A stretch of DNA of 22,129 nucleotides from a virus (lineage: Duplodnaviria > Heunggongvirae > Uroviricota > Caudoviricetes): IMG/VR virus record IMGVR_UViG_2526164668_000016, positions 1-22,129 of that record; one strand, 5' to 3'. The notes beneath the pieces are model-generated. The model was not told where the DNA came from, made no database searches, and saw only the letters and a program-made list of their open reading frames with translations. Shown here one piece after another: positions 6,439 through 8,971 of this stretch (positions within the stretch are counted from its first letter, which is position 1; the number at the start of each line of letters is the position of its first letter). A program made the translations under genes and the position numbers.

Positions 6439-6708
6439 CTAAATCAGTAAGTTGGCAGCATCACCCAATTTTTTACCGTTATTCACGTTACAGTAAATTT
6501 CGGCAAGTTCGCGTGATAACATTATTTCTCCGTTATGTTTATCTATAGCAATGTGATCGGGATTATCACGAATAAACTTCTTTATCATTGGCATTGCCAT
6601 AAACTCTTCTGGCGTATAGATGAGTGTATGGCGGCGAACGTGTTTTATCACAGGTGTTTTATGTTTTGATTCAACCTGAAATACATTAATTTTATTCTGA
6701 TTTGACAT
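6439..6708 (-). CDS. hypothetical protein, last gene of leftward operon; C-terminus replaced by IS1 sequence (truncated)
   Basis: ORF begins 2 nt after the upstream stop; the last 9 codons and the stop lie inside the IS1 terminal repeat (6439-6465), so the native C-terminus is lost. No recognisable family. Confidence 0.45.
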   Translation of the reverse strand: MSNQNKINVFQVESKHKTPVIKHVRRHTLIYTPEEFMAMPMIKKFIRDNPDHIAIDKHNGEIMLSRELAEIYCNVNNGKKLGDAANLLI

Positions 6709-6710
6709 GT

Positions 6711-7292
6711 TTAATGTTCCAATGGTGTTTCTGGCATACCATGAGTATTCAGATCGTGAATCATTTCATCCAGAAGAAGTTCAAGCCCTTCTCGTCCCAT
6801 AGCAGAGACAATGAAGCCATTATCAGGATCTGCGATGAGCATTTTTTGATAGAGAAACAGAACTCGCCCCATGCCTTCAGCTTCGCCATATTTTTCAATG
6901 AATCTCCATTCGACATGGTTTTGCAGGGCAATGCGAAGTGGCCCTGGGTAGATACTCAGGCAACCATGTTTACCCTTGTAAATAACTGCGCGATCTGTAG
7001 TTCCATTATCGTTAGGGATATCAATGGTGCCGTTCTTGCCTTCTTCTTCATTTATAAACGTCGTCACATACAGCCATCGCCATTGAGCAATCTTCATATC
7101 GACTGAAAATCGTCCCAGTAATCCGGCATCATCGGCTTCAGCAATACATTGCATAATTCTTAAACCGTGAGAATTTGGATAATCGTATTCACCATCATTA
7201 AGCCGCTGTACGGCCTCAACATAATCAATGGTTGTATTGCCAATTTTTATGCCATGTGGCGTAACTTCTGGTCGGAACTCTGAATGATTCAT
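6711..7292 (-). CDS. hypothetical protein (193 aa), unknown family
   Basis: ATG at 7292 preceded by GGAG with 8-nt spacer; start overlaps the upstream stop as ATGA (translational coupling). AT-rich codon usage. Confidence 0.55.
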   Translation of the reverse strand: MNHSEFRPEVTPHGIKIGNTTIDYVEAVQRLNDGEYDYPNSHGLRIMQCIAEADDAGLLGRFSVDMKIAQWRWLYVTTFINEEEGKNGTIDIPNDNGTTDRAVIYKGKHGCLSIYPGPLRIALQNHVEWRFIEKYGEAEGMGRVLFLYQKMLIADPDNGFIVSAMGREGLELLLDEMIHDLNTHGMPETPLEH

Positions 7293-7507
7293 AATGTTTG
7301 CTCCTTTGCTGGTGGAATAATCGTGTAACCCGCTCTTTTTGCCATCCACAGAAATGTATCCATGCAGCCAACGAATTCATTATCCAACAGATGTTTTGAG
7401 TAAATTACTTTCCCATTTTCAATGGTTAGCAACACTCTTACTTTTTCGTGTATTACCCCCCCCTGCTCAGGCTCATTCTGCATTTTATTTCGTGCTGATG
7501 TCTCCAT
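7289..7507 (-). CDS. hypothetical small protein (72 aa)
   Basis: ATG at 7507 preceded by GGGAGA RBS (alternative ATG at 7522); contains an in-frame G8 homopolymer (plus-strand C8 at 7456-7463); stop overlaps the next gene's start. Confidence 0.45.
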   Translation of the reverse strand: METSARNKMQNEPEQGGVIHEKVRVLLTIENGKVIYSKHLLDNEFVGCMDTFLWMAKRAGYTIIPPAKEQTL

Positions 7508-7703
7508 TATTTTATCTCCCATAAGCCTTGCGCAAATACAGGTTGGCTATATGAAGATAAGAATCTCCATGTTGTGCAATGAGGCAGGCAGTTTTATACG
7601 ATGCCTTATGTTTCAGGAAGGTCATAACATAATCTCCTGCGAATAAAGGTTGCAACAATCCCCGGCGATAAAACCGTAATAAACATTCAGGGAATATTTA
7701 TTG

Positions 7704-8069
7704 TTATTGCGCTAATTCTTTTTCGGCAGCAGCTTTTGCATATTCACATGCAAAATTCAGAATTTCGCTGCCAAGTACTTTTGTTTCGTGATTACTGGAC
7801 ATATGTAATACCTGTGTTGCATGCAATAAATGATAAACATTTACCGCAAATGAATCAGGCTCCAGACAAATGCCTTCGTAATTATCTTGCTGTGAGGTTG
7901 TTTCTGTCATTGCTCCTGAAGTGCATGCGAGCCTGTTTTTGACAATTCTCTTTCCTCTAATCACTATATCGGCAACATCTATTGCCTTTACAACCTCCGG
8001 GAGAAGTTCCTGGTTTGTATAACCAAAGTTATCAACATGGAGAACAGTTATGTTTTCGAACTTTTTCAT
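7704..8069 (-). CDS. hypothetical protein (121 aa), unknown family
   Basis: ATG at 8069 with GAGGAAG RBS; the longer frame starts at 8087 without an SD. Sequence begins MKKFENITVLHVDNFGYTNQELLPEVVKAIDVADIVIRGKR…. Confidence 0.5.
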   Translation of the reverse strand: MKKFENITVLHVDNFGYTNQELLPEVVKAIDVADIVIRGKRIVKNRLACTSGAMTETTSQQDNYEGICLEPDSFAVNVYHLLHATQVLHMSSNHETKVLGSEILNFACEYAKAAAEKELAQ

Positions 8070-8290
8070 GGCTTCCTCAGCTGACATGTATGTTCTGTTA
8101 TATAGTGAGTCTCAGAAGTGTTTTCATATTGAGACTGTTTCCGCAATGGTTGAGAGAAATGTCCGTATGTATCTTGATGGCAGAAGTGGCGATTATGTCA
8201 CTCTGGCTTTCGGCTCCTCAGTTGAAGAACTTCGTGAAATTCGCTCTCAGCTTGTAGAAAAGCGCGGCGATGTTATTGCCCCATGGTATC

Positions 8291-8971
8291 TTATGAAGCC
8301 CGGGCAATAGGCCCACCAGTTAACAGCCACATCGGATCGCAACCAAGCGCATTAGCCAGTGGAATGATCTGGCTTGCGGGGACTTCGCAGATACCGCACT
8401 CCCAGTCGTTTATGGGGTCGTTGTAGGTGTGAATCATGCGTGCCAGGTCTGCTTCTGTCAGTCCAACTTTTTTACGTGCGGCTTCTATACGTGTGCCAAT
8501 GCTTTCCTCCTGGATGTCTGGCTGATTTACGGTAACAGCAGCAGCGCTATTTTTTTCACTCAGCAGAGAAAGAGGATCGCATCCCAGGACATTTGCCATG
8601 GGGATTAGCATGCTGATGGTTGGTTCGTATTCTCCACTCTCCCATTGCAGGATAATCTCTTCGTCAAGATCGAGCAGTCTGGCCAGTTCGGTGGTCGTCA
8701 AACCGCAGGCTTCACGTTGGGTGCTAAGGTTAACCATGTATTCAGGCTGTTTTTCAGGAGCAATATCTTGTCTTGAATAAAAAATTGCGTTTTTTACTTC
8801 GAAGGCGTAATCAGTGGCCAAAGCAACTATGGTATCGCCAATTTCACAGTATTCATGGTTATTTGATGTAGCTAATAAATATCCAGCTTCAAAAAGAACG
8901 GCGGTATTTTTTAGCGCATCCAGTGGGTGCATGGAAAAGCCATTAAAAGTCAGAGTCGGTTTTGCCCTCAT
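8291..8971 (-). CDS. tandem helix-turn-helix (XRE/Cro-C1-type) DNA-binding protein with an extra 75-aa N-terminal domain
   Basis: Two HTH-like segments (…REACGLTTTELARLLDLDEEIILQWESGEYEPTISMLIPMANVLGCDPLSLL… and …AARKKVGLTEADLARMIHTYNDPINDWECGICEVPASQIIPLANALGCDPMWLL…). ATG at 8971 with GGAG RBS, about 27 bp downstream of the OL-like dyad repeats. Confidence 0.6.
   Translation of the reverse strand: MRAKPTLTFNGFSMHPLDALKNTAVLFEAGYLLATSNNHEYCEIGDTIVALATDYAFEVKNAIFYSRQDIAPEKQPEYMVNLSTQREACGLTTTELARLLDLDEEIILQWESGEYEPTISMLIPMANVLGCDPLSLLSEKNSAAAVTVNQPDIQEESIGTRIEAARKKVGLTEADLARMIHTYNDPINDWECGICEVPASQIIPLANALGCDPMWLLTGGPIARAS

Follow-up and report, generated by a model that had tools for sequence, protein, structure and literature searches.

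We analyzed a 22,129-nt window of DNA from a virus of the class Caudoviricetes (the whole of positions 1 to 22,129 of IMG/VR record IMGVR_UViG_2526164668_000016), and in particular a block of minus-strand genes at 6439–8971, between an IS1-family insertion sequence and the gene for a cI-type repressor. As things stand, the block is an ordinary phage early operon of known-unknown families and not a new defense system. Our best explanation, which we consider reasonably probable, is that these genes make up the leftward, immediate-early operon (pL operon) of a lambdoid prophage of the phiP27/ASU11 type: a mosaic set of early genes that would be repressed by cI, and whose first gene, g1, would encode a regulator that is matched to the immunity type. 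The initial annotation of this DNA had described a leftward, cI-proximal set of uncharacterized genes in a prophage remnant that is cut by IS1, and both the layout of the locus and our family searches agree with that description. It had also put the block forward as the best candidate here for a module not yet described. This proposal is not supported: the block is an early-left operon that had already been sequenced and that a widespread family of prophages shares, and its proteins are already in PHROG families or in other databases.

The block lies behind a putative OL and pL

Five open reading frames (ORFs) on the minus strand, which we call g1 to g5, encode proteins of 226, 121, 72, 193 and at least 81 amino acids, and the ORF list agrees with the places and sizes that were first reported. 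The description of the block as a five-gene operon holds for these five genes but not for the count, since a gene for a 37-amino-acid protein and a plus-strand gene for an 86-amino-acid protein are also present. As stated earlier, the block is AT-rich (42.1% G+C, versus 52.4% in the replication module) and the last three genes are translationally coupled: the stop codon of g3 overlaps the start codon of g4 (ATGA), and 2 nt separate the stop of g4 from the start of g5.

The repressor gene (9103..9849, minus strand), which we treat as context outside the operon, encodes a 248-amino-acid protein with HTH_3 and Peptidase_S24 domains (Pfam, E = 7e-7 and 5e-15) and is annotated as repressor CI in phage ASU11. 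Past its stop codon lies the pair of operator-like dyads that had been noticed before: two exact copies of the motif ATAG-N6-CTAT, at 9006–9019 and 9031–9044, whose role as OL operators is predicted. The 22-kb window has four exact copies of this motif. The other two (9854–9867 and 9912–9925) are in the gap between cI and cro, which also has two sites with one mismatch. The left pair forms an inverted repeat that is 93% complementary, and a pL-like promoter on the minus strand overlaps it (–35 TTGCCA from 9031, a 17-nt spacer, and –10 TATTAT ending at 9003; 10 of 12 matches). The ORF list has no ORF between the end of cI (9103) and the operator sites. We infer that the operator pair and the promoter-like site are OL and pL, and that g1 is the first gene of a cI-repressed early-left operon.

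Genes behind OL and pL should be silent in the lysogen. In phage lambda, the rexAB genes are found between cI and OL and share a transcript with cI in lysogens, while N and the delayed-early genes lie behind OL and pL and are repressed by cI. The initial annotation placed the block at the "rex/N/ea" position. The N slot fits, but the rex slot does not: no gene separates cI from the operators, and the block begins after the pL-like promoter. Because the genes follow OL and pL instead of lying between cI and OL, defense genes that are expressed from the prophage are not the default expectation. We infer that the slot shifts the prior from prophage-expressed exclusion toward early lytic functions.

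The operon is a known unknown

The right-hand part of the window, from 6466 to 9100 (the whole block to the right of the IS1), is 99.9% identical to five complete chromosomes of Escherichia coli, and phage ASU11, which was obtained by induction, is 99.9% identical along the block's full length. A match to at least 80% of a longer query (6300–9100) was found in only 6 of 5,426 genomes. Phage phiP27 is 90.7% identical over 63% of the query, and 19 phages that carry genes for Shiga toxin (Stx1 or Stx2) are about 72% identical to the block. Several of these are named for integration at yecE. The prophage of E. coli strain CD45 (our locus L001), which also adjoins yecE, is an intact relative. Its gene order is int, xis, a 44-amino-acid ORF, DUF4222, DUF5406, g5 (93 amino acids), g4, g3, g2, g1, cI, cro, Rha, ash, the replication genes, and Q. 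In this and two other intact relatives (L002 and L003), the operon reaches xis and int via DUF5406 and DUF4222; in our window, the IS1 has removed that arm.

The backbone is shared with many Stx1 and Stx2 phages that are integrated at yecE. In phiP27, the counterparts are genes with no assigned function: L06 (g4), L07 (g3), L08 (g2) and L10 (the gene for the helix-turn-helix (HTH) protein), with L09 on the opposite strand. Public databases already hold the proteins of the block as "hypothetical" or "helix-turn-helix domain-containing", and the identical g4 protein is found on 983 contigs. As judged from these sequence matches, the block is a known unknown that has been in the databases since phiP27 (L06–L10), not something undescribed. 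A literature search with the phiP27 gene names, RefSeq accessions and PHROG identifier returned nothing on these genes, and two papers on the genomics of Stx phages (PMC8044961 and PMC8136144) do not discuss them. The backbone is common in E. coli, and in many pathogenic strains it bears Stx1 and Stx2.

We compared all seven proteins to Pfam, PHROGs, NCBIfam and PADLOC. An HTH domain was found for g1 alone; the others matched no family or matched PHROGs without a function. None of the proteins matched a recombination, excision, antitermination, anti-restriction or toxin family in Pfam, PHROG or NCBIfam. This agrees with the earlier remark that none resembles N, cIII, kil, gam, bet/exo, xis or int: there was no match to any of these families in the same three databases. 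Although N and cIII/kil/gam/bet/exo are typical of lambdoid left operons, they are not required.

g1 is an acidic XRE-family protein with an immunity-specific N-terminus

g1 (8291..8971, minus strand; 226 amino acids) has GGAG before its ATG at 8971. Pfam's HTH_3 (PF01381) matches it in two stretches (E = 4e-15; 56 bits, versus a cut-off of 23), so the earlier statement that no protein of the block could be placed in a family fails for g1, which belongs to the XRE family. It also matches phrog_4739 and phrog_4836. In the AlphaFold2 model of g1 (mean predicted local distance difference test (pLDDT) 71.8), the domains are beads on a string, joined by low-confidence linkers. The N-terminus (residues ~7–66) has a short beta-hairpin and then a helical hairpin (helices 16–34 and 39–66). 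A disordered linker leads to the first HTH domain (HTH1, residues 77–136), and a second linker leads to HTH2 (158–218); both have five helices. The best Foldseek matches of the model are P22 C2 and the 434 repressor, with TM scores of 0.88–0.90 against P22 C2 (normalized to the target), and g1 is also similar in sequence to the DNA-binding domains of both repressors.

g1 differs from these repressors in its charge. Its isoelectric point (pI) is 4.4 and its net charge is –17, with –9 in HTH1 alone, and all of the alleles are acidic (pI 4.3–5.0). Over the 64 residues that align, 12 are basic and 6 acidic in P22 C2, versus 5 basic and 9 acidic in HTH2 of g1. Four positions of C2 (Q21, V33, Q37 and R40), which we take to be the DNA-contacting positions in the C2-operator structures, are E, D, D and C in HTH2, and HTH1 has D-E-E at the start of the helix. 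The acidic residues at the C2 contact positions suggest that g1 is not a canonical operator-binding protein.

Among the alleles of g1 in related phages, which have one or two HTH domains, the core of HTH1 (TQREACGLTTAELARLLDLDEEIIIQWESGEYEPTISMLIPLANVLGCDP) is almost invariant. The N-terminal hairpins fall into seven types that are unrelated or barely related to each other. Across 84 loci, these seven types form six groups that correspond one-to-one to six types of cI (one cI type has two related N-terminal types). In the same loci, neither the type of g2 nor the form of the C-terminus of the HTH protein follows the cI type; both assort freely. When we compared the window to eight representatives of other immunity types, the DNA homology ended at 8720–8736 in all eight, or within 16 nt. 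Homology resumes at 10127–10211 where the locus extends past the immunity region (in one locus, L034, it resumes only at around 11042). The left border of the immunity region thus lies within g1, between the N-terminal hairpin and the conserved core of HTH1. The gap in homology implies an immunity cassette that comprises codons 1–78 of g1, OL/pL, cI, OR and cro. These patterns suggest that g1 may be an early regulator that is matched to the immunity type and that may work via protein contacts.

We noticed that four cysteines of g1 (C89, C131, C192 and C211) are invariant in all 21 aligned alleles, within the motifs REACGL, LGCDP, DWECG and AL-x-CD. XRE domains do not usually have such cysteines, which could form a site for redox chemistry or metal binding. 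Also, some of the alleles with a single HTH domain (168–192 amino acids; for instance L030:5577–6125) end in a low-complexity tail of about 40 amino acids (EVTPPEQPKSEEQQHH...), whose coding sequence runs antisense to the 3' portion of the plus-strand gene. The tail looks like read-through from a recombination joint instead of a functional domain.

g2 shares a hairpin domain with g1

g2 (7704..8069, minus strand; phrog_5451, E = 1e-81) has either 121 amino acids or, if it starts at the ATG at 7910, 68 amino acids. The NCBI annotation pipeline PGAP calls the 68-amino-acid form, and related phages have a 66-amino-acid form that lacks the N-terminal extension. The 121-amino-acid ORF is open in homologs at 46–67% identity. 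Within the 53-codon extension, there are 11, 7 and 9 substitutions at the three codon positions, with 5 synonymous and 13 non-synonymous changes, so there is no third-position bias.

A single PHROG, phrog_4587, matches both residues 57–121 of g2 (E = 2e-28) and residues 8–58 of g1 (E = 8e-11). Furthermore, a hidden Markov model (HMM) that was built from the g2 domain without g1 matches the HTH ORF at its N-terminus in 56 of 82 loci. Our hhalign comparison of g1 and g2 was partly circular, as the query was a row of the alignment, and the paralogy rests on phrog_4587 and the g1-free HMM instead. These matches indicate that the C-terminal ~55 residues of g2 ("domain X") are a paralog of the N-terminal hairpin of g1, and g2 is a possible modulator of g1. 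A specific pairing of g1 and g2, like that of SinR and SinI, was considered and is weakened by the lack of covariation: C-terminal type 1 of g2 is found with N-terminal types 1, 3, 4, 5 and 7 of the HTH protein, and C-terminal type 2 is found with types 1, 2, 3, 4 and 6.

A conserved 37-amino-acid protein, and g3

A short ORF (7512..7625, minus strand) between g2 and g3 encodes a basic microprotein of 37 amino acids (MTFLKHKASYKTACLIAQHGDSYLHIANLYLRKAYGR). It has its own Shine-Dalgarno sequence (AGGAG), and its stop codon is 4 nt before the ATG of g3. The ORF is missing from the PGAP annotation and from the gene list of the initial annotation. Using tblastn (E < 0.01), we found it in 91 of 98 loci, including loci from Citrobacter, Klebsiella and Phytobacter at 58–76% identity. 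The conserved motif is L(F/Y)LRKAYG. On 460 contigs, the identical sequence has been called as a hypothetical protein; it has no match among PHROG or Pfam families. In size and position, the protein is reminiscent of Kil and cIII of lambda, but it is not similar to either.

g3 (7289..7507, minus strand; 72 amino acids) belongs to phrog_340 (E = 2e-24). Homologs, all of them annotated as hypothetical, are found in 33 records of phages, among them Fels-1 and phages of Klebsiella. ORFs similar to g3 are also present in early-left operons of Citrobacter and Rahnella, where they are separated from g4. This rules out a strict g3-g4 pair.

g4 is kept across Enterobacterales prophages, and the slot behind it is variable

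g4 (6711..7292, minus strand) encodes an acidic protein of 193 amino acids (net charge –13) that belongs to phrog_1515 (E = 1e-90). The family is narrow: a word-indexed search found 59 proteins, and an exhaustive profile search with the g4 alignment found 133 representatives among 1.84 billion proteins. Nearly all of the full-length members are single-domain proteins of 190–220 amino acids. Ten members, including all of the longer ones, were scanned for Pfam domains, and none was found, so fused domains give no clue as to the function. The AlphaFold model of g4 is confident (pLDDT 88.5; predicted TM score 0.83) and has no fold match. A sequence search of PDB gave a best E value of 0.26. g4 is the only member of the block that is kept across prophages of Enterobacterales, always between the gene for an S24 repressor and the integrase end.

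g5 (6466..6708, minus strand) is what remains of a gene for a basic protein of 93 amino acids. In agreement with the earlier report that the final gene is cut by IS1, 81 codons are left, and the ORF extends to 6439 within the IS1; L001 has an intact copy (L001:8962–9243). g5 did not match any family. Of the 80 related loci, 15 have it, and in Rahnella it directly follows g4, at 59% identity. The slot after g4 is variable. Most relatives have, in place of g5, a gene for a 275-amino-acid SPFH/Band-7 protein (Pfam, E = 3e-31), which corresponds to L05 of phiP27 (L003:2480–3307) and has been annotated variously as a lipoprotein or a serine protease.

A counter-oriented gene between g1 and g2

The plus-strand ORF (8050..8310; 86 amino acids) matches phrog_6104 (E = 1.5e-44), corresponds to the L09 region of phiP27, and has no Pfam, NCBIfam or PADLOC family. 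A Shine-Dalgarno sequence (GGAG) lies upstream at 8041–8044. The ORF overlaps the start of g2 by 20 nt and the end of g1 by 20 nt. A second allele, with the same length of 261 nt and 77% amino acid identity, is present in 20 of the loci that we fetched. Comparing the two alleles, the part of the gene that does not overlap its neighbors has 12, 9 and 30 substitutions at codon positions 1, 2 and 3, and the entire ORF has 27 synonymous and 19 non-synonymous codon changes. The third-position bias and the excess of synonymous changes are a signature of a translated gene. Because Met13 is Leu in the second allele, the start is at 8050 or 8068. The gene is optional: it is present in 31 of 80 related loci (26 of them at 80% or more of the length), and elsewhere the HTH gene abuts g2. 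As the gene is convergent with pL, it is the only plausible candidate within the block for a "moron" that is expressed in the lysogen.

The block is a mosaic and not a unit

We gathered related loci with the g4 alignment (80 viral contigs and 9 genome loci) and found 5 more by looking up exact proteins. The 80 viral contigs are the best of 266 matches, so they are biased toward close relatives. Among these E. coli-type contigs, 77 of 80 have the HTH gene, g2, g3 and g4 in that order (78 had sufficient upstream sequence), and the contigs carry at least 6 types of cI. Another 14 loci are from other genera (Citrobacter, Klebsiella, Rahnella, Yersinia, Phytobacter, Raoultella, Providencia, and another genome of Enterobacterales). 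In these, g4 is the only gene of the g1–g4 core that is kept. g5 is present in one of the 14, and a weak g3-like match that does not adjoin g4 is present in 5.

Whether the cluster is inherited as a block therefore has a split answer: HTH-g2-g3-g4 stay together in 77 of 80 contigs, but g5 is in just 15 of the 80, and beyond Escherichia only g4 is retained. Common descent within one phage lineage would produce the co-occurrence in E. coli. Breakpoints in DNA similarity lie at the borders of genes or domains (8070, 8153, 8240 and 7889), and the HTH gene itself is mosaic among related loci. Thus, in comparative terms, the block looks like a typical mosaic string of early genes and not like one machine.

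A proposal for how the operon works, and points against it

We propose that transcription starts at the promoter that overlaps the two cI operators just to the left of cI. The genes would be off in the lysogen and would come on within minutes of derepression, as for N, cIII and kil of lambda. The order on the minus strand would be g1, g2, the 37-amino-acid gene, g3, g4 and the variable slot, followed in intact relatives by DUF5406, DUF4222, xis and int. The N-terminal hairpin of g1, which is encoded within the immunity cassette, would be specific to the type of cI, Cro and operator. The acidic HTH core of g1 would be more likely to bind a protein than to act as a classical operator-binding repressor, and the candidate partners are the cognate repressor, Cro, or a host factor. 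The hairpin of g2 may compete for the same partner or modulate it. The coupled 37-amino-acid, g3 and g4 proteins would act early, on the host or on the decision between lysis and lysogeny. No N, cII, cIII or kil is recognizable in this type of phage, so the control of lysis versus lysogeny, and hence of toxin release, probably lies among these early genes. The leads for future work are the immunity-linked acidic HTH protein and its paralog, the conserved 37-amino-acid peptide, g4 with its orphan fold and its spread across genera, and the small counter-oriented gene.

Several points weigh against our proposal. The promoter, the operators and the read-through from cI are all read from sequence alone. 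No terminator-like site is predicted between cI and pL, so read-through and low expression in the lysogen are possible. For the plus-strand gene, we did not find a sigma-70-like promoter; by eye, there is a TTGACA at 7939–7944 with a poor –10. The covariation of cI with the N-terminus of g1 could reflect linkage only, with the HTH core serving as a recombination boundary. The type of g2 does not covary with the N-terminal type of g1, which argues against a specific g1-g2 pairing. And acidic XRE proteins that do bind DNA exist, so the idea of a protein-binding HTH has a weak basis.

Alternative explanations

The initial annotation pointed out that this slot commonly carries exclusion, defense or anti-defense cargo, such as rexAB and sieB. 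We considered whether the block is a prophage exclusion module of the rexAB/sieB kind, expressed in the lysogen and protecting it against other phages. The genes are adjacent to cI, AT-rich and uncharacterized, the 86-amino-acid gene would need its own promoter and expression in the lysogen, and the lack of a predicted terminator between cI and g1 leaves room for some read-through. But the genes are behind the cI operators and not between cI and OL. In PADLOC-DB 2.0, only g1 has matches, and these are to the generic HTH parts of RmrA, CapH and PDC-M64 (its N-terminal HTH part); g2, g4, g5 and the plus-strand gene have none, and g3 has two matches at chance level (E ~ 0.02). Pfam and NCBIfam show no enzymatic, NTPase, nuclease, TIR, SIR2 or membrane domain, nor do PHROG and Pfam relate any of the proteins to Rex or SieB. 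Outside Escherichia the block does not stay together, and its last gene is disrupted here without obvious consequence. We think that an exclusion module is very unlikely. An addiction pair seems to us extremely improbable. Here g1, as an acidic XRE protein, would be the antitoxin and regulator, and the 37-amino-acid peptide or g5 would be the toxin. An acidic HTH protein does lie beside small basic proteins (pI 9.8 and 10.0), and g1 has sub-threshold matches in NCBIfam and PADLOC to XRE antitoxins (HipB/MqsA-type and CapH). These matches reflect the generic HTH fold and are below the curated cut-offs, as is the match of g1 to YdaS_toxin (E = 0.075). No ORF belongs to a toxin family in Pfam, NCBIfam, PADLOC or PHROG, the genes do not lie side by side as a bicistron, g5 is an optional gene (in 15 of 80 loci), and control by cI instead of autoregulation is indicated.

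Early-expressed cargo for anti-defense or host takeover is closer to our proposal, and we rate it as rather unlikely. In this case g1, g4 and the small proteins would neutralize restriction or abortive infection, or would shut down the host, like Ral, Gam and Kil of lambda. The position behind pL implies early lytic expression, g4 (–13) and g1 (–17) are strongly acidic, the slot directly after g4 is variable, the gene content is mosaic and reassorts rapidly, and the 37-amino-acid basic peptide is of the size of Kil or cIII and is conserved across genera. However, the argument is from charge and position alone, and there is no similarity to anti-restriction or host-takeover families in PHROG, Pfam or NCBIfam. 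This explanation overlaps with the best one and does not exclude a pL operon. A bolder version of our own proposal, which we regard as a long shot, is that g1 stands for a class of early switch proteins, not described so far and matched to the immunity type, in lambdoid phages that lack N, cII and cIII, many Stx phages among them. The hairpin, with one type for each immunity group, would read the cognate cI or Cro, the invariant, acidified XRE domain would bind a protein or mimic DNA instead of binding an operator, g1 would be an anti-repressor or commitment factor, and g2, as a free copy of the hairpin, would tune it; separately, the 86-amino-acid gene could be a moron that is expressed in the lysogen.

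The IS1 junction and the left flank

The prophage sequence ends at the IS1-family element (5692..6465), which has an InsA-like ORF and terminal repeats at 5692–5714 and 6443–6465. Measured between its terminal repeats, this copy is 774 bp long; IS1A, at 768 bp, is a little shorter. It is not flanked by a 9-bp target duplication; the flanks differ (...AAGGTACT versus CAATTTTTT...). To the left, positions 1–5691 contain genes for F4/K88-like fimbriae and ISEc16, and this part is 100% identical to E. coli plasmids (CP010241 and CP010120) and 99.9% identical to AP042702. The DNA to the right matches a prophage in a chromosome of the same strain family (AP042701) at 99.9% identity. The plasmid-like left part and the prophage right part are found together in no complete genome. 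This, along with the missing target duplication, suggests that the window is either a plasmid-prophage cointegrate that was formed by IS1 or an assembly join across IS1.

The transposase of ISEc16 (IS3 family, 3798–4947) is split over several frames, with ORFs at 3798–4097, 4094–4792 and 4624–4947. This is more than the single programmed frameshift that would be expected, so this copy may be degenerate.

Comparison with known systems

The pL operon of lambda, as given in the textbook map, has the same position to the left of cI, behind OL and pL, and runs leftward toward xis and int. It is likewise a string of small, partly translationally coupled, mosaic genes that look non-essential. The block differs in that it has no homolog of N, cIII, kil, ral, gam or bet/exo (by Pfam, PHROG and NCBIfam), and its first gene encodes an XRE HTH protein instead of the arginine-rich antiterminator N. 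Also, no nut-like RNA site was identified, and an Rfam scan of 5600–11000 found no RNA family. The block resembles rexAB and sieB of lambda in its proximity to cI and its accessory character. It differs in its place, with the interval that rexAB fills being empty here, and there is no similarity in sequence or family.

SinR and SinI of Bacillus subtilis are likewise an XRE HTH protein and a small protein, encoded nearby, that share a helical-hairpin domain, and the HTH of SinR is among the structural matches of g1. But the shared domain is N-terminal in g1, and the HTH of g1 is strongly acidic; this is an analogy and not homology of the shared domain.

Immunity cassettes of the imm21 type extend into the first pL gene, and imm21 carries its own N. 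Here too, the immunity-specific segment spans the 5' part of the first pL gene, along with OL, cI, OR and cro. Unlike in imm21, only the N-terminal domain of g1 is specific to the immunity type, and the remainder is common to all of the immunity types.

The closest systems are the direct homologs: L06–L10 of phiP27, gp50–gp53 of ASU11, and the genes of the yecE-type Stx phages. The plus-strand gene is truncated or absent in these relatives, and an SPFH/Band-7 gene replaces g5 in the variable slot. L10 of phiP27 differs from g1 by having a single HTH domain and another type of N-terminus. Otherwise, g4, g2 and g3 are 90%, 95% and 87% identical to their counterparts in phiP27, g4 and g1 are 71% and 65% identical to those in the Stx phages, and the genes are in the same order between the repressor gene and xis/int.

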